Under the pieces are notes generated by a model that saw only the letters and a program-made list of their open reading frames with translations, searched no databases and was not told the DNA's origin. A stretch of 64,000 nucleotides of DNA from an uncultured Holophagales bacterium (GTDB taxonomy: Bacteria; Acidobacteriota; Thermoanaerobaculia; Multivoradales; UBA5704). Below, one piece after another: positions 3,844 through 54,425 of this stretch. The stretch covers positions 832,001-896,000 of the forward strand of contig CAWJGT010000009.1 in the NCBI GenBank assembly GCA_963842525.1, read 5' to 3'. The position numbers and the translations under genes are program-made. Positions within the stretch are counted from its first letter, which is position 1. Each line of letters begins with the position of its first letter.

Positions 3844-3990
3844 TCGCAGGAAGCGTATTAGGCAAGAGAAAGGCGTATCTGACTTTGGAGGCACCGCCAG
3901 GCTGAGGTTCGTTGCTTGCAACGAGAAAATGCAGGTCGCGGAGTCCATCCGCTGCGGGAGGCCCTATCCGGCTGGCACTTCTGGACCGGC

Positions 3991-4658: not shown

Positions 4659-4780
4659 GGTGACCCTGGTGATCCTGTCGCTGGTGTCGCTGTTGGGCCG
4701 CGACCGGCAGGCGATCGCGATCGGGCGCACGGCCTACGCCGGGCGGCGTCCTGTTCTGTCCTGTTCGGCTGGCACCTCTG
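4659..4780 (+). repeat. Duplicate of the MHYT gene 3' end and its downstream motif (copy of ~38869-39006)
   Basis: [25 protein letters not shown] vs [25 protein letters not shown], both followed by TGTTCGGCTGGCAC. Confidence 0.85.
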
Positions 4781-17874: not shown

Positions 17875-18334
17875 GCCCGCAAGCGTGCTGCGGCTTGCGC
17901 GCTTGTTGCAGCGATACGCCATCGTGGTTGAGAAGGGGGGGAGCATTGGCATCATTGATCGAGGTCTCCCCGACGCCATCTCTCGCCTCATTCAGGATGG
18001 AGGCATGACGCTGGCCGACGCAATGGTGTTCGTCAGCGTCGTGATTCCGACTGATTTGCCAGCGTTAAACATTCGCCTCGACATTCAGCCGAAGCTCGCG
18101 TTCGATCGCGTCTTAAGTCGTGGCAAGCAGTTCTCGGCGAGTGAAGCACGCGGAATGTCCTACCTTCAAAATCGTCACGCGGCCCTCAGTGATGTATTTG
18201 GAGTCCTCGATACGCTCGGCCGAGATGTCGCAATTCTCGATGCTCGGCAACCACTCAAAGAGCTACATGCGAGCGCTTTTTCACGTATAGATGCTTGGCT
18301 AAAACGATCCAATTGGGTACCAGCCGAATCTTAA
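17875..18334 (+). pseudogene. 5'-truncated thymidylate-kinase-like protein
   Basis: IIDRG and RLDIQPKLAFDRVLSRG resemble the dTMP kinase C-terminal half; no P-loop present. Confidence 0.45.
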
Positions 18335-20116: not shown

Positions 20117-20630
20117 AGCTCACCACCTTTCTTATCCAACCTCTGCCTCAAGGATTCACCGGCAACCACCACGCAGGTGTATACGACAAGCCCTGCGATT
20201 GTCTCTACTGCCGGTCCGGGCGTCGGGCTTGCAGGATCTTTAGTCTTAGCTTACAGGAGTTTACACCTCTTCCTTATCCACGTCAAGTCCGTGAGGAGCA
20301 CTAGCCGTGGATTCCACGGGAAGTTATTGGCCTAACAGGCCCCGTCCCGAGAGGCCGTGCCTTCAAAGGGAAGCCATAGGCTTCGGCGGTTAGGTCGTTG
20401 GGTGCTCTGATAGGCCAATATGCGCAGTCCCATCCGGGGCGTTTTGGCCCCAAAACGCCCAATAACTCCGAAGAGGGACCGTGCATGGACGCCTATCAGA
20501 GCACCTATCTGGATAACGCATCTCGGTCTCGAACGGCAGTGCTCGGCCCGTGGGGCCCCCTCTGGCGGCGTTAGACGAACTTCTCGCCGTGGAAATCCAG
20601 GCTAGAATAGCAAGAGGGCGAGACCCTACA

Positions 20631-21797
20631 ATGAAATCACCCATACACATCACCCCGTTCTCGATCCAGATCGAGGCAGAGATCCTGTCTGACCTCCGAG
20701 AGCGTATCCGCGGCACGCGCTGGCCTGATCAGGCACCAGGCACGGCCTGGGAGCAGGGGACTGACCTTGAATACCTTAAACAGTTGCTTGCGTATTGGAC
20801 CGCCGAGTTCGATTGGCACGCACAAGAGCGCAAGCTGAACGCGGTCAAGCAGTTCCGCGCCGAGCTCGACGGCGTCCATATCCACTTCGTCCATGAGCGG
20901 GCCAGACACGGGCACGGCATTCCGCTGATCCTGACCCATGGCTGGCCTAGCACGTTCGTTGAGCTGCTTCCGCTCGTGCCATTCCTGACCGATCCAGACG
21001 CCCACAGTATCGACGGTCCCGCCTTTGACGTTGTCATCCCTTCACTGCCGGGTTACGGGTTTTCCGATCGGCCCGCTCAGGTGGGCGTGAACTATCAGCA
21101 CGTCGCCGGTCTGTGGCATCGCCTCATGCGTGGCCTGGGTTACGAGCGCTACGGGGCTCAAGGCGGAGATTTCGGGGCCGGTGTTGCCACGTTTATGGCA
21201 TTGACCGATCCCGAGCCGATGATTGGTGTCCACCTGAGCAATCTGGAGATTCGGCCCTACACTGGCGCAGGGGCGCGGCCACTGTCCGCGGCGGAGAGAA
21301 CCTATCTCGAGCGCAATGAGGCATTTTGGCAGGAGGAGTACGGTTACAAGGCAATCCAATCCACGAAGCCCCAGACGCTCGGATACGGGCTGAACGACTC
21401 GCCCGCTGGACTCGCCGCCTGGATTCTGGAGAAGTGGCGCTCCTGGGCCGATTCCCGCGGTCATCTCGATCAGCGCTTCTCCCGCGATTTCCTGTTGACC
21501 ACGGTAACGCTCTATTGGGTCACCCAGACGATCACATCCTCGATGCGGGACTACTTCGACAACGACAACTGGCGGTTCCGAGTCACGCTTGGACCACAGG
21601 AGCTCGTCAGCGTGCCAACTGGCATCGCTGTCTTCGCCAATACGTTTGTTGATGAGGGAACACCTCCCCGCGAGTGGGCCGAGCGTCTATACAACGTCGT
21701 CCAGTGGACCTCGATGCCGAGCGGCGGGCATTTCGCCCCGGCAGAAGAGCCCGAGTTGCTCGCCCGCGATATCGCAGCGTTCTTCGCCGGTTTATGA
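20631..21797 (+). CDS. Epoxide hydrolase (microsomal type, alpha/beta hydrolase)
   Basis: LTHGWP, PSLPGYGFS, AQGGDFG, GGHFAPAEEP. Confidence 0.93.
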   Translation: MKSPIHITPFSIQIEAEILSDLRERIRGTRWPDQAPGTAWEQGTDLEYLKQLLAYWTAEFDWHAQERKLNAVKQFRAELDGVHIHFVHERARHGHGIPLILTHGWPSTFVELLPLVPFLTDPDAHSIDGPAFDVVIPSLPGYGFSDRPAQVGVNYQHVAGLWHRLMRGLGYERYGAQGGDFGAGVATFMALTDPEPMIGVHLSNLEIRPYTGAGARPLSAAERTYLERNEAFWQEEYGYKAIQSTKPQTLGYGLNDSPAGLAAWILEKWRSWADSRGHLDQRFSRDFLLTTVTLYWVTQTITSSMRDYFDNDNWRFRVTLGPQELVSVPTGIAVFANTFVDEGTPPREWAERLYNVVQWTSMPSGGHFAPAEEPELLARDIAAFFAGL

Positions 21798-21818
21798 GTC
21801 GCCCCAATTTAGGTGCCA

Positions 21819-22259
21819 CCCATTAGAAGGCTCTTGTCAACGACCCACACGTCTCCCACCCGGGAGTGTTCGTTTCAAGAACGGCTCGTTCCGGCAAGAT
21901 GTGCTCCCGTGTCGGGTTTGCGCGCCCGTAGTCTCGCTGTGCTTCAGGTGCGGAGATCCGCACCAGCCACCCATCGGGATCAAGGCGGGTCGGAGCCGGT
22001 GACGGCTCCGACCCGCCCCTGGCACGGTTTGCGTGCCCCCAGAAAATCTTCGGTTCCAGGTTCGTGTCCAAGGGTTCAGGACAACCAATAAGGCTACCTC
22101 CGCCCCCCCGAAAGGTTCAGAGGTGCCAGCACATTCGGGCTCACGACCTGGGCGCATCTCCAACAAAAGAGCCAAAAACGGTGGAAGACAGGGGCCAATC
22201 AGCCGTAGAGGGTTCTTTCGCCCAGCACCTAATTGCAGGCTCCCTGTCTTCCACCTGAA
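21819..22259 (-). ncRNA. Candidate bridge/seekRNA of IS110 #1
   Basis: Structured 3' non-coding region; a 14-bp stem (22180-22193/22242-22255) encloses loop strands matching the insertion site. Confidence 0.65.
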
Positions 22260-23277
22260 TCAACCAAAAGCTTGCGCCGACCTGAACGGCACCTGGTCGC
22301 GCAGGATGTAGTACGCGGCACGAGTCAGCTTGTTCGAGATCGTCCGCAGGGCCACCAACTCGTTGGTCCTGGCCCGCTTGCGCTCGTAGAGACGCTTGGC
22401 GAGGGGCTCGAACCGAATGGCGAAATGTGAGGCCTCCATGAACGCCCAGGACAGGTACGGGTTGCCATTGCGTACGTTGCCGGAGCCCTTGACCTTGCCG
22501 TTGCTGAGGTGCTGACTGGGTACACAGCGGCAGTAGGAGGAGAAGTGGCCCGCCTCGGCAAAGCGAGCGATGGAGCCGGTCTCGTACATGATCGTCAGGG
22601 CAAGGGTCAGACCGATGCCGGGAATGCTCTCGAGCAGCTCGAACTCGGGCCTCAGTCTGGCCTGTTTGAGAACAGTTTTCTCGATGCCAGAGATTTGGTC
22701 TTTCAGCGTGCGGGCGATCGCCAGGCTGCTCGTGATCGTCAAGGCAATATGTGGGTCTGTGAATTGCTCCTCGACCTGCTCGGCAGTCATGCGCTTGAGC
22801 TCGCTGAGAGGAACTTGAGTCTCCGGTGTAGCGCGAGAAGACGTTTTTGACGCTCAGCAAGCTGGCGGTGCGCTGTCGCACCAGAAAGGCTCGACGGCGC
22901 AGTAGATCCCGCACCGCGCGCTCCTTTTTCGGATAGATGTGGCCGGTGGGCAAAATGTTGAGGTGGAGTAGACGCGCCAGCCATCGCGCGTCATGGCGAT
23001 CATCGACGTACTTCAACCCCTCGTACTGGCGAACTGCGGAGGTGTTGACCAAGCGAACCTCGTAGCCGGCCTCCATGAGGCCATCCACCAACCAGTACCA
23101 GTTGAAGGTGGACTCCACGGCGATCGCCTGGATCTGCTCCCGGAAGGGCTCCAGGGCTTCCAGGGCCGCCTCCAGACGGTTGGGCAACCGACGGCTGAGG
23201 ACAGCTTGTAGTTGTTCGTTCATCACCACGAGATAGCTGTTGGTTGAATGCAAGTCGATTCCGCAGTACAGTCCCAT
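22260..23277 (-). pseudogene. IS110 DEDD recombinase, frameshift near 22815
   Basis: YCGIDLHS, AVESTFNWYW, DDRHDA; C-terminal SIPGIG and HLSNGK in another frame. Confidence 0.88.
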
Positions 23278-23598
23278 ACGCTCCTCCTTTCAGGGATTGG
23301 TCTCCCGACGAGCCTATCGCGGCTCGTCAGAAGGGAGGAACCTTCTAGAGGATCATCAGCCGAATCTTGACCTCCTGAAGAGTCAATCGCACTTCCCAGC
23401 CGCGTTTCGGCGAGAAAACTGGCTGGTAAGTAGCACCTGAGCACGCCTTGAGGCCGTCGCTCACCCTTTGTGTGTGCGTTTTGGATGGCTTGTATGACCC
23501 GTCCGGACTTGAAGTGCACACACCTCTCCCTCTTCCGCGCGCAGGAAGTCGGCGGCCGGAAACTGCGAAGGCTGTCAGCGGCCAGAAACGCCCGAAGC

Positions 23599-23850
23599 CT
23601 ATCCGCTCACCCAGGGTAGGGCCGGTGGGCAGCTGCCCGCCGGGAAGACAACATCACGCATCCCCGCCTTGAGCTTTTCCGCAGCCGTTCGAAAGGCACC
23701 CAGGAATTCGCCGTAGGCCCGGTAGAGCTCGAGGCGGACCTTCTTGCTCGCCGCATGGAAGAGAGGAGCGGGCGATTTCTTGGATGGCTGGCCGGCCATG
23801 TCGCTTCTGGTTTCGGATTGCCTCGGGCCCGAGAGCCGCCTTTGGCGGGC
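23599..23850 (-). pseudogene. C-terminal remnant of a HUH/RAYT-like transposase
   Basis: LGPEAIRNQ..SKKSPAPLFHAASKKVR..FPAGSCPPALPWV; cut off at the MITE end; family recognised from recollection only. Confidence 0.55.
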
Positions 23851-24002
23851 ACCTAGTTCTACTTTGTCAGATTCGCTCGGCTTCGGTTGGAGAGGCCCCG
23901 AAGGGGTCTGGGCATAAAGATGCTATGCAGGGCGAGGGGGTGCAAGAGCGGGGCCGCTGGTTGTATGTTTCGGGGAACTTAGCGTTTGAAAGGGGAACCC
24001 CG

Positions 24003-25142
24003 ATGAACCAGACAGCCCAGAAGGCAGAGTTTACGCGAACGGAGAGAGCATTGCACGTGGCATTGGAGCTGGGCGGTAGCGAGTGGAAGTTGGCTTTTGC
24101 TGCGGAGGCTGGCCCGAAACCTCGGCTGCGCTCGGTGGCGGCCGGGGATCTCAACGGGCTGATGTTGGAGATCGGACGCGCCAAACACCGTTTCGGTTTA
24201 CCGGAAACAACTCCTGTCGTGAGTTGCTACGAGGCAGGCCGGGATGGATTCTGGCTTCACCGGTTCTTGCTGCTGGAGGGTGTGGAGAACGTTGTGGTGG
24301 ACTCCTCGAGCATCGAGGTGAATCGTCGGGCTCGGCGGGCGAAGACGGACCGGGTTGACGCTGAGAAGTTGCTGTCGCTGCTGATCCGCTACGCGGCAGG
24401 TGAAAGAAAAGTGTTCGGTGTGGCGCATGCGCCGACGCCGGAGCAGGAGGATGTGCGCCACCTGGGTCGAGAGTTGGAGGGCCTGAAGCAGGAGCGGACG
24501 GCCCACACCAATCGGATCAAGTCCTTGCTGGTGAGCCTTGGAATCCGGGTGAAGGTAGGCAAGGGGTTTGCGCAGCAGTTGGAGCAGTTGCGGCAGTGGA
24601 ACGGCGAGCCGCTGCTGCCAGTCTTGCGGGAGCGTCTGCGTCGGGAAGTCGAGCGGCTGGAGCTTCTGGAGAGTCAGATCAAGGAGTTGGAGCAAACTCG
24701 GCAGCGGGCCGAAGCCGCGTCCAGAGAGGGCGGGATGGTGCAGCGGCTGAAAAAGCTCAAGGCCATCGGCGACAACAGCGCCTGGTTGTTCGTCCTGGAA
24801 TTTTTTGGCTGGCGGCAGTTCCGGAATCGCCGTGAGGTAGGCAGCTTGGCTGGGTTGACGCCGATGCCCTACAAGAGCGGCACGACGGTGGACCACGAGC
24901 AGGGGATCAGTAAGTCCGGCAATGTGCGGGTGCGTACGATGTCGATCGAGATCGCCTGGGCGTGGTTGCGGTTCCAGCCGCAGAGCCGCTTGAGCTTATG
25001 GTTCCAGGGGCGCTATGGCCCTGGGAACCGGCGCTCGCGACGGGTAGGGATCGTGGCCCTGGCGCGCAAGCTTCTGACCGCGCTGTGGCGCTACTTGGAC
25101 CAAGGGATCATTCCTGATGGCGCTGAGCTGAAGGCCAGGTAA
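24003..25142 (+). CDS. IS110 recombinase (intact)
   Basis: VALELGGSEW, CYEAGRDGFWLHR, KTDRVDA, GLTPMPYKSG, EQGISKSGN. Confidence 0.92.
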   Translation: MNQTAQKAEFTRTERALHVALELGGSEWKLAFAAEAGPKPRLRSVAAGDLNGLMLEIGRAKHRFGLPETTPVVSCYEAGRDGFWLHRFLLLEGVENVVVDSSSIEVNRRARRAKTDRVDAEKLLSLLIRYAAGERKVFGVAHAPTPEQEDVRHLGRELEGLKQERTAHTNRIKSLLVSLGIRVKVGKGFAQQLEQLRQWNGEPLLPVLRERLRREVERLELLESQIKELEQTRQRAEAASREGGMVQRLKKLKAIGDNSAWLFVLEFFGWRQFRNRREVGSLAGLTPMPYKSGTTVDHEQGISKSGNVRVRTMSIEIAWAWLRFQPQSRLSLWFQGRYGPGNRRSRRVGIVALARKLLTALWRYLDQGIIPDGAELKAR

Positions 25143-25520
25143 GGATCAAGAGGCAGAAAGTGTGACCGCAAAATAGGAGATTTCAGGCTGGGAGGAGCGT
25201 GCCCGGCGCCAGGCTGGGTTCGGTTTCGAGCCGCCATTAAAGATGGGGCCGCTCCGTTTGCTTGCCCGAGTCGCTCGCAGCGCATGCTGCATTTGGTGCC
25301 CTCTCCAAGAAATTGAGGGAGGTCAGCACGGATAGAAGCTTGACGGGGACTACGGTTCCTGGCGCAATCGGCAAGCCCCAGACGGGATCGCATTTGAGGT
25401 AGGAGAAACAGCACCTTGCTGCCGGGGGAGCTCCGGGCAACAAACCTCAGGCGGCATTCAGGAAGGAGACGAAACGCAGACCCACTTACCCGAAACGCTT
25501 GACAACGGGGGCCCACATAG
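25143..25520 (+). ncRNA. Candidate bridge RNA of IS110 #2
   Basis: Two stem/internal-loop modules whose loop strands match the target (25206-25215, 25238-25242) and donor junction (25289-25294, 25332-25338). Confidence 0.7.
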
Positions 25521-25688
25521 AAGCCTGGCGCTTCAGCGCCAGGTTGGCGCCTCCAATTTCCAGGAGCCCTGAAGGGGCGCAGGCATTCCATCCACCCGCA
25601 GCGGGGCTCGCGCACTCGCCCATGCCGTCGCCCCTTCGGGGCTGAGGATTGAATGGGGCCGCGGTCCTGGGGTTGAAACCCCAGGCTT

Positions 25689-27529
25689 GTGCGCCCGTGA
25701 GCGCACACGTTCAGAGAGGTGAAAGTCCTCTTCAGGCATACGCTCTCCGGCCTGTAACCGAAGGTAACTGCGTCGCCCAAAGCGAGGTGGAGAGCAACCG
25801 GAGGTGAGAGACCAGTCCGCAGGAGACGAAATCGATTCGGCCTTGTGACCCCGACGAGCCTGCAAGCCACTGGCGAAGTCTGGACCCTCAAGGGAGACCC
25901 ATCGAGCTGAGGGGTAGCGTGCGAAAGCGGCGATGGGGGGGCGTAGGGTGATTGGATGCAGAATGGTCTCAAAGGACGTGTGACGTGAAGCGGGGAGACC
26001 TCGGTCGGGCAGGAGACTTGCCGAGGAGTCAGAGTCCTCATAGGAGCTGAGAAGCGCCGTAACGGGCGTGGAGCAAAGGGGGACAGGGAGGTGGATGCGT
26101 GACGACTGGACAAGCGGAAAGCAACCGCGCGTCAGTGCCTGTAAGGGCTAAACAAGCCGGAGAAGTCCGGGGCCGGTGGCCCTGGGTGGAACCGCATGTC
26201 TGGACGGATCGCATGTTGACGGCCCTCGAAGCTGGGGTCCAAGGAGGCCAATGGTTCAGTCTGATCGACAAGGTCTATGACTCGCGCAACCTGGACTCTT
26301 CCTACCAGCGGGTCAGGCGGAACCAGGGAAGCGCTGGGGTTGACCACGTGACGGTCGCGCAGTTCAGCGCCCACCTCGGCAAGAACCTGGAGAACCTGGC
26401 GGCTAGTCTGAAAGACGGCAGTTATCGTCCGCAGGCGATTCGCCGGGTGTGGATACCCAAGCCGGGTAGCTCCGAGGAGCGCCCTCTGGGGATTCCGACG
26501 GTTCAAGACCGGGTGGTGCAAGGAGCGCTGCGCAATGTCTTGGAACCGATCTTCGAACGGGAGTTTGCAGCCCAGAGCTACGGATTCCGTCCGGGGAGAA
26601 GTACCAAGGCTGCGCTGCGTCGCGTCTCGGAGCTGCTGGAGGCCGGCTATACCCATGTGGTGGACGCCGACCTGCGCAGCTATTACGACACGATCCCTCG
26701 CCAGGGTTTGATGGCGAGAATCGAAGCGAAGGTATCGGACGGCCGGGTCTTGGACCTGGTGCGTGCCTTTCTCGACCAGGAAGTGATGGTGGGTCTGGAG
26801 CACTGGACTCCTGAGGAGGGAACTCCACAAGGAGCGGTGATCAGTCCCCTGCTGTCGAATATCTACCTGGACCCTCTCGACCATCAAATGGCCGAACAAG
26901 GTTATGAGATGGTGCGGTACGCTGATGACTTCGTGATTTTGTGCCGTAGCCGAGAAGAGGCCGAGCGAGCGTTGGCGGAGGTGGAGGAGTGGACGGCAGC
27001 CGCCGGTCTGCAACTTCATCCCGACAAGACGCGCATCGTGGACGCCACCCAGCCGGGTGGCTTCGACTTCCTTGGGTACCACTTCGAGCGCGGCTATCGC
27101 TGGCCGAGCAAGAAGAGCCTGAAGAAGCACAAGGACACGATCCGTTCCCACACCAAGCGCACGCACGGCATCAGCCTGCGAGAGATCATCCGCCGAGTCA
27201 ACGCAGTCCGTCGGGGCTGGTTTGAGTACTTCAAACACAGTCACGGCACCACGTTCAAGCCTCTCGACCAGTGGGTGCGGATGCGCCTGAGGAGCATCCT
27301 TCGCCACCGGCAAGGGAGACGAGGACGTGGCCGGGGTCAGGACCATCATCGCTGGCCGAACGCCTTCTTTGCTGAGCATGGGTTGTTCTCCTACGTCACA
27401 GCCTATGCTCAGGCCCGTCAATCCTCTAGCAGGTAAAACCACCAACTGGAGAGCCGGATGCGGGAGATCCGCATGTCCGGTTCGGAGGGAGGGGGAGCCG
27501 GGAACTCAACCGGCCCTCCCTACCCCTAT
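25689..27529 (+). mobile_element. Group II intron (full length)
   Basis: 5' GTGCG; domain V GAGAGCCGGATGCGGGAGATCCGCATGTCCGGTTCGGAGGGAGG (~27449); 3' end CCCTACCCCTAT; exons rejoin into REP CCAGGCTT|TACGCCGTCGCCCCTTCGGGGC. Confidence 0.92.
26099..27436 (+). CDS. ltrA: Group II intron reverse transcriptase/maturase, no endonuclease domain
   Basis: RPLGIPTVQDR, GTPQGAVISPLLSN, RYADDFV, FDFLGY. Confidence 0.95.
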   Translation: MTTGQAESNRASVPVRAKQAGEVRGRWPWVEPHVWTDRMLTALEAGVQGGQWFSLIDKVYDSRNLDSSYQRVRRNQGSAGVDHVTVAQFSAHLGKNLENLAASLKDGSYRPQAIRRVWIPKPGSSEERPLGIPTVQDRVVQGALRNVLEPIFEREFAAQSYGFRPGRSTKAALRRVSELLEAGYTHVVDADLRSYYDTIPRQGLMARIEAKVSDGRVLDLVRAFLDQEVMVGLEHWTPEEGTPQGAVISPLLSNIYLDPLDHQMAEQGYEMVRYADDFVILCRSREEAERALAEVEEWTAAAGLQLHPDKTRIVDATQPGGFDFLGYHFERGYRWPSKKSLKKHKDTIRSHTKRTHGISLREIIRRVNAVRRGWFEYFKHSHGTTFKPLDQWVRMRLRSILRHRQGRRGRGRGQDHHRWPNAFFAEHGLFSYVTAYAQARQSSSR

Positions 27530-54312: not shown

Positions 54313-54425
54313 GGCTCCTGGAAATTGGGAGGCGCCAACCTGGCGCTGAAGCGCCAGGCTTTATGCCCAGGCCCCTTCGGGGCCTCTCCAATCGAAGCCG
54401 AGCGAATCTGACAAGGTAGGTTTAG
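54313..54425 (-). repeat. Partial uninterrupted copy of the MITE/REP element of 23853-27589
   Basis: Reverse complement aligns to 23853-23919 joined to 25524-25567. Confidence 0.85.

Follow-up and report, generated by a model that had tools for sequence, protein, structure and literature searches.

The element and its copies

The window, the whole 64,000-nt stretch of DNA analysed, carries a minus-strand element of the IS110 family that measures 1,541 bp counting one copy of its core. Its features, from the left end to the right, are the following.

21817..23359, minus strand: whole insertion sequence; its ends are where five genomic copies diverge, and the coordinates include both TG cores
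23358..23359, minus strand: left core TG, with the target flank on this side, TTCGGC, at 23365-23360
23357..21819, minus strand: element body, between the left and right cores
23278..23357, minus strand: left end of 80 nt, in which the subterminal inverted repeat TAGAAGG(T/C)TC (23348-23339), a hairpin of small size and a GGAGG ribosome-binding site are located
22260..23277, minus strand: gene for an IS110-family DEDD transposase, stop codon 22262-22260; frameshifted in the window copy
22180..22255, minus strand: putative target-binding stem-loop (seekRNA core), in which a closing stem of 14 bp surrounds two guide strands with a small hairpin between them
22225..22232, minus strand: T guide UUAGGUGC, the complement of the right-flank top strand GCACCTAA (21816-21809)
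22200..22205, minus strand: B guide CGGCUG, the same as the left flank (4 nt) plus core and able to pair with the bottom strand
21921..22156, minus strand: multi-branched RNA domain, conserved and predicted with RNAalifold from 11 relatives
21968..21974, minus strand: putative donor box AUGGGUG, which repeats the terminal 5 nt of the right end together with the core; in a multiloop, just 5' of the hairpin 21964-21947
21819..21840, minus strand: right end, with an outward TTGACA (21840-21835), the subterminal inverted repeat GAGCCTTCTA (21833-21824) and the terminal ATGGG (21823-21819)
21817..21818, minus strand: right core TG, with the target flank on this side, GCACCTAA, at 21816-21809

We compared the element and its flanks by blast with the genome that contains the window (9.95 Mb in 34 contigs) and found one truncated copy, several fragments and four full-length copies, one of which is at C9:189634-191187. 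When the junctions were lined up, the similarity began after TTCGGC-TG with ATGATCC on the transposase-proximal side and stopped on the distal side at CTAATGGG-TG, before GCACCTA. All five copies are situated between GGCTG and GCAC, the four full-length ones in the same orientation, and TTCGGCTG at the left junction is common to four of the five. Unoccupied sites elsewhere in the genome read TTCGGCTGGCAC with a single TG, and the TG is thus a core shared by element and target, with no target duplication. An earlier note on this DNA had placed the transposase-proximal end at 23402. The five genomic copies lose similarity at 23359/23364, which puts the left core at 23359-23358, and the CCAGCCG at 23397-23403 belongs to the flanking repeat. 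The 14-nt empty site that had been deduced from the wrong boundary, TTAGGTGC-CA-GCCG on the plus strand, is nevertheless correct, because CAGCCG is also present at 23358-23363. Contigs assembled from four DNA runs of one sample contained element fragments only, and among them we found no end joint, circle junction or empty site; two of these contigs cease matching at 23362.

The ends have the subterminal inverted repeats of an IS1111-type element: TAGAAGGCTC lies 9 nt inside the left terminus and its complement 5 nt inside the right terminus. Among relatives, the distance from TTGACA to the terminus is constant. The outward TTGACA is directed antisense into a 415-aa reading frame (20550-21797, plus strand), which stops 12 nt before the right target flank of the element.

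Two of the partial structures share a breakpoint. Copy 4 (C9:241644-243513; L042) is a full copy followed directly by a 324-nt partial right end that begins at the internal TGCTGGCACC. An orphan 225-bp fragment (C9:824534-824758), about 7.2 kb before the start of the window, comprises the end of the transposase gene and a complete target-binding stem-loop with the guide variant of copy 4, and breaks off at the internal GTGCTGGCA. As the breakpoint recurs in copy 4 and in the orphan fragment, this internal target-like spot looks like a rearrangement hotspot.

A further IS110-family element, unrelated to the first, lies in the window at 23857-25695 on the plus strand, with a 452-aa transposase (23784-25142) and a long non-coding region upstream. 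It is located within the remnant of a Y1 transposase gene unit, and copies 97-98% identical to it occur at C9:61843-63673, C34:142039-143879 and C19:103167-104975.

The transposase and the downstream stem-loop

The intact copies encode a 338-aa product with the two domains of the family (PF01548, E = 1.5e-14; PF02371, E = 5.4e-18), which reaches 190.7 bits with the NCBIfam model NF033542, "IS110 family RNA-guided transposase", whose cut-off is 140. The closest named relative is the ISGsu4 family, a name from plasmid annotation, compared by its transposase alone (48% identity over residues 4-338). The IS1111-type protein that we compared, from the ISEc11 family, is 26% identical over residues 67-324. 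The non-coding sequence is distributed unevenly, with 80 nt upstream of the transposase gene against 441 nt downstream. The earlier note had remarked on the downstream region of about 440 nt as longer than a minimal bridge RNA; for the IS1111 group, the length is normal.

Beginning 4 nt past the stop codon, 22255-22242 and 22193-22180 form a perfect 14-bp stem around an interior of 48 nt. The predicted fold of this hairpin has an energy of -44.4 kcal/mol (z = -4.83), and none of 200 shuffled sequences was as stable; in the single-sequence fold, the two guide strands partly pair with each other. An Rfam search of positions 21500-25500 with E values up to 10 returned chance-level matches only, none near any gathering score, and a scan for sigma-70-like promoters found none inside the integrated element. 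The stem had been described correctly in the earlier note, with its halves at 22180-22193 and 22242-22255, as had the loop strands: GCACCTAA at 22225-22232 on the plus strand is UUAGGUGC in a minus-strand RNA, and CAGCCG at 22200-22205 is CGGCUG. In the window copy, UUAGGUGC is fully complementary to the 8 nt after the right core. The right flank of copy 3, GCACTCAT, matches the guide imperfectly.

At 22820 the window copy contains a base that the intact copies, and also one metagenome contig, do not have, and owing to the resulting frameshift it is unable to make its own transposase. With copy 5 truncated, copy 4 rearranged and solo end fragments present, one could suppose that the family was formerly RNA-guided and that this genome holds decaying, immobile copies in which the loop records a past target. 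We consider this very unlikely: three copies retain intact 338-aa frames at 96-100% identity, the guides are intact in all copies, and copies 1 and 2 differ at only 4 of 1,555 positions, a near identity that indicates recent movement. The guide region of the window copy is undamaged, and the three copies with intact frames could mobilise it.

Co-variation of guides and target flanks

We collected 93 loci of related elements, 13 from genomes of the same family and 80 from contigs sampled at one genome per species; the closest loci of the latter set came from metagenome bins of Acidobacteriota or Thermoanaerobaculia. A scripted test dropped 13 of the 93, in which the landmarks were undetected, and kept 80, representing 58 distinct hairpins. 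The B guide matched at least 5 of the 6 nt before the core in the element's own left flank for 25 of 58 elements, compared with 61 of 3,306 pairings with the flanks of other elements. For the T guide, a match of at least 7 of 8 nt was found with the own right flank in 25 of 48 elements and with other elements' flanks in 121 of 2,256 pairings. None of 10,000 permutations attained the observed sum of matches on either side, although this count overstates the independence of the data since relatives inherit guides and targets by descent. Several relatives matched only two to three of the six left-flank bases, some of them through mis-detection of landmarks, and a few rows that look mis-anchored, among them L062, L079, L111, L121, L125 and L126, were retained in the counts, which lowers the own-flank scores.

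The pattern is clearest in the close family. Ten differently aimed elements have transposases that are 70-83% identical to the present one, which was represented in this comparison by the window copy, and their guides change together with their targets. It is in the loop strands and flanks that these relatives vary; their ends, their closing stems and the greater part of the 3' region are conserved. Three relatives illustrate the correspondence:

Left flank and core AGCCTG, right flank GCGCTTC; 3' loop strand AGCCUG, 5' loop strand GAAGCGC
Left flank and core CGCGTG, right flank GCACCTAC; 3' loop strand CGCGUG, 5' loop strand GUAGGUGC
Left flank and core GCCCTG, right flank GCTCCTT; 3' loop strand ACCCUG, 5' loop strand AAGGAGC

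We read the close-family series as showing repeated independent retargeting. The earlier note had proposed that the loop strands match the two halves of the site on opposite strands, and this was borne out by the 58 distinct relatives, which track their own flanks. It had also named copies with flanks unrelated to their loops as the contrary observation; the genomic copies and the 58 homologous elements follow their loops on both sides.

A GC-rich 14-bp stem followed by CGUUUUUGG, with U-rich tails after the stem in several close relatives, might also be the intrinsic terminator of the transposase gene, the matches between loop and flanks then being coincidental. Such coincidence is hard to credit, as both loop strands change with the flanks in 58 elements and the sequence of a loop is immaterial to terminator function. 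The 48-nt loop with its conserved internal features is likewise unlike a terminator, and a terminator scan did not call the stem-loop. The roles of terminator and guide could coexist.

The target motif and its association with Y1 transposase genes

From base composition, 2.3 occurrences of the 12-mer TTCGGCTGGCAC would be expected in the genome; there are 23, and many target copies share the longer consensus cTGTTCGGCTGGCACYTCTG, at times in direct tandem. The unoccupied target-like motifs that the earlier note had listed at 3969, 4766 and 38992 are present, with three, two and three mismatches to the 14-mer, respectively. Its description of the target as a palindrome family did not hold: only 1 of the 23 exact TTCGGCTGGCAC sites, at window position 4766, has an inverted partner, which makes the label unfit. 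The motif in inverted orientation does flank three copies of a gene for a 307-aa Y1 transposase (IS200-like, PF01797), and the window copy and copy 3 are inserted exactly at the motif downstream of a Y1 gene, the one in the window being a remnant. The target family is a motif dispersed in direct orientation and associated with Y1 transposase genes. IS1111-type elements are known to aim at repeats that are tied to other mobile elements, REP and attC sequences being among the targets named in the published account (PMC11187229).

Several other repeats were noted during this search. At 23360-23838 of the window, a repeat of about 480 bp consists of the 3' part of a Y1 (PF01797) gene and about 210 nt ending in the target motif of the element; units 80-83% identical to it lie at C9:100798-101282, C3:734106-734589 and C33:36235-36435, and a full 307-aa Y1 gene is found between inverted motif copies at L010:1748-2671. 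Another Y1-repeat end, on the minus strand at 18313-18328 of the window, has the unoccupied near-target AAGATTCGGCTGGTACCCAATTGG, close to the reconstructed pre-insertion site. Downstream of copy 3 (L035), at C9:1078285-1078360, direct tandem units resembling GCACTCATTTCGG are followed by an empty target beside the occupied one. A REP-like near-palindrome, CTGGCGCTTCAGCGCCAG, is present at 25525-25542 and at 54340 of the window, with 12 exact occurrences and 30 with at most two mismatches genome-wide. The 13-mer AGCCTGGCGCTTC, which occurs 26 times in the genome, is the target of an 82%-identical relative elsewhere and not of this genome's element.

The remainder of the 3' region and the donor end

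Downstream of the stem-loop, the RNAalifold prediction for the 11 relatives contained 102 pairs, 27 of them with compensatory changes. The predicted closing helix of this multi-branched domain, UGCGCCC (22156-22150) with GGGCGCG (21927-21921), is invariant among relatives; hairpins inside the domain, for example 22016-21983, have clear compensatory changes.

The domain includes a short box that co-varies with the end of the element. The AUGGGUG box and a tail of the form RCUGGUGCGG were found in 51 of the 58 elements, and in 41 of 46 the box agrees with the right end of the same element. Three lineages (ATGGCTG, ATGAGTG and ATGGATG), with seven elements between them, have the identical change in the box and at the right end. 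Altogether 12 elements have a variant in one or the other, and 5 of them are discordant, 3 of these with CG in place of TG at the right core. The context of the box (N5-UG, then RYUGG) is the same as that of the left-flank guide. The earlier note's tentative match of CCACCCAT at 21967-21974 (= AUGGGUGG) to the donor end is thereby strengthened, since AUGGGUG co-varies with the right end in three lineages.

A comparable search for a guide complementary to the left end gave no consistent position or co-variation in 51 elements, and the UGAUCC upstream of the donor box stays constant while the left ends vary. Donor recognition is therefore only half explained. It is possible, though we hold it to be somewhat short of an even chance, that the 3' region of about 335 nt (22255-~21921) is one guide RNA of two modules that reads the right end, with the protein reading the left. 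Module 1 would be the target loop and module 2 the multiloop in which AUGGGUG reads the right end and core only; the left end would be recognised by the protein through the long subterminal repeats. If true, the donor would be held half by RNA and half by protein, distinct from IS621. Orphan copies of module 1, such as that at C9:824534-824758, could serve as alternative guides in trans.

The segment at 22118-22130 had also been described as resembling the target or donor. The resemblance stands, as GCUGGCACCUCUG is present there, but the corresponding RNA segment GCUGGCACC is unchanged in relatives aimed elsewhere. As a candidate guide it was rejected: GUGCUGGC is kept where targets differ and forms part of a predicted small helix, and the segment is a conserved structural piece. 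The presence of this further target-like DNA within the element (GCTGGCACC at 22118-22130), coinciding with the rearrangement breakpoints of copy 4 and the orphan fragment, could suggest that the matching segments work as DNA, as a target copy for protein-mediated or single-strand pairing or as footprints of nested insertions, a reading with very little to commend it given that a captured target copy would have both halves adjacent on the same strand, that the halves here lie on opposite strands with a small hairpin between them and a closing stem kept by compensatory changes among relatives, which is an RNA signature, and that the relatives tested in the published work use RNA (PMC11187229).

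Comparison with known systems and proposed mechanism

The co-variation of loops and flanks, together with the architecture of IS1111-type seekRNAs (PMC11187229), supports the earlier note's proposal of a bridge RNA or seekRNA of the IS110/IS1111 kind. We put the probability at roughly 90% that the element is a member of the IS1111 group of the IS110 family, an RNA-guided DEDD recombinase with a seekRNA or bridge-RNA guide. The IS1111 type is defined by inverted repeats of 7-17 bp in subterminal position, a transposase of about 340 aa (330-350) whose gene is followed by a long non-coding region, an essential seekRNA of 70-100 nt from this downstream region (Siddiquee et al. 2024) and, within the seekRNA, a top-strand match 5' of the bottom-strand match (PMC11187229). 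The sequence here shows all four features, the seekRNA as a putative one, with UUAGGUGC (22232-22225) lying 5' of CGGCUG (22205-22200). The fit to the IS1111 type appears in the order of the matches, the topology, the subterminal repeats, the downstream non-coding region and the 338-aa transposase.

The described IS1111-type elements ISEc11, ISPa11 and ISKpn4 resemble the present one in having no target duplication and in carrying the guide matches within one stem-loop; natural retargeting among relatives about 70% identical is reported in the same account, as is a REP-like repeat as the target of ISPa11 (PMC11187229). An annotated ISEc11 locus with the published target GTGAAAATACTG has the same layout of stem, T guide, small hairpin, B guide and stem, although its stem-loop lies about 100 nt past the stop codon in comparison with 4 nt here. 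Relative to the IS1111-type seekRNA elements, the present one further differs in a conserved UG-AUUGG anchor after the B guide and in its Acidobacteriota-like host genome.

The bridge RNA of IS621 and the IS110 group likewise reads both strands around a dinucleotide core, and the group shares with our element the DEDD recombinase exchange and a second portion of the RNA that corresponds to an end of the element itself (Durrant et al. 2024, PMC11208160). The IS621 RNA is encoded at the left end of the element, whereas here it would be encoded at the right end, and the two target matches come in the opposite order. A donor loop of IS621 type, with guides for both donor halves, was not found in the 51 elements searched for a left-end guide; the right-end AUGGGUG box was the only match, and the subterminal repeats are long. 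For 93% of IS1111 elements, the same work predicts a bridge RNA that is located in the right end and has its donor-binding bases in a multiloop (PMC11208160). The placement of AUGGGUG in a predicted multiloop agrees with this. ISPpu9 and ISPpu10 of Pseudomonas putida are reported to be IS110-family elements inserted in repeated extragenic sequences, and ISPpu9 is reported to have a small-RNA gene downstream of its transposase and orphan copies of it, comparable with the orphan stem-loop at C9:824534-824758.

We propose that the non-coding region directly downstream of the transposase gene would be transcribed and fold into the stem-loop. On the right side of the TG core, the 5' loop strand UUAGGUGC would pair with the target's top strand; the 3' loop strand CGGCUG would pair with the bottom strand of the left flank and core, and the recombinase would exchange strands at TG, giving insertion in one orientation into CGGC-TG-GCACCTAA with no target duplication. 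The second conserved RNA domain, whose AUGGGUG matches the element's own right end and core, probably holds the donor end. In an excision circle, TTGACA (21840-21835), a spacer of 17 nt and G+ATGAT, the latter supplied by the first five bases of the left end, would form a junction promoter. For the production and processing of the RNA, its binding by the protein, the circle with its promoter and the chemistry of strand exchange, this proposal draws on tested relatives; the ends, the target, the protein family and the co-variation of loop with flank and of box with end are observations on the present elements.

With this element, the RNA-guided IS1111 elements extend to an Acidobacteriota-like lineage. 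As the mechanism is already described for relatives, the general picture of how such elements work is unchanged. What the analysis contributes is a compact natural series of retargeting, comprising 10 elements with transposases at least 70% identical but different guide pairs and targets, and 58 distinct guide and target pairs overall. The series should be useful for the pairing rules of this less-studied branch of bridge RNAs and seekRNAs, with about 5 nt plus the core on the left and 7-8 nt on the right, and may also inform which G-U positions are tolerated and how the donor end is read in the IS1111 branch.
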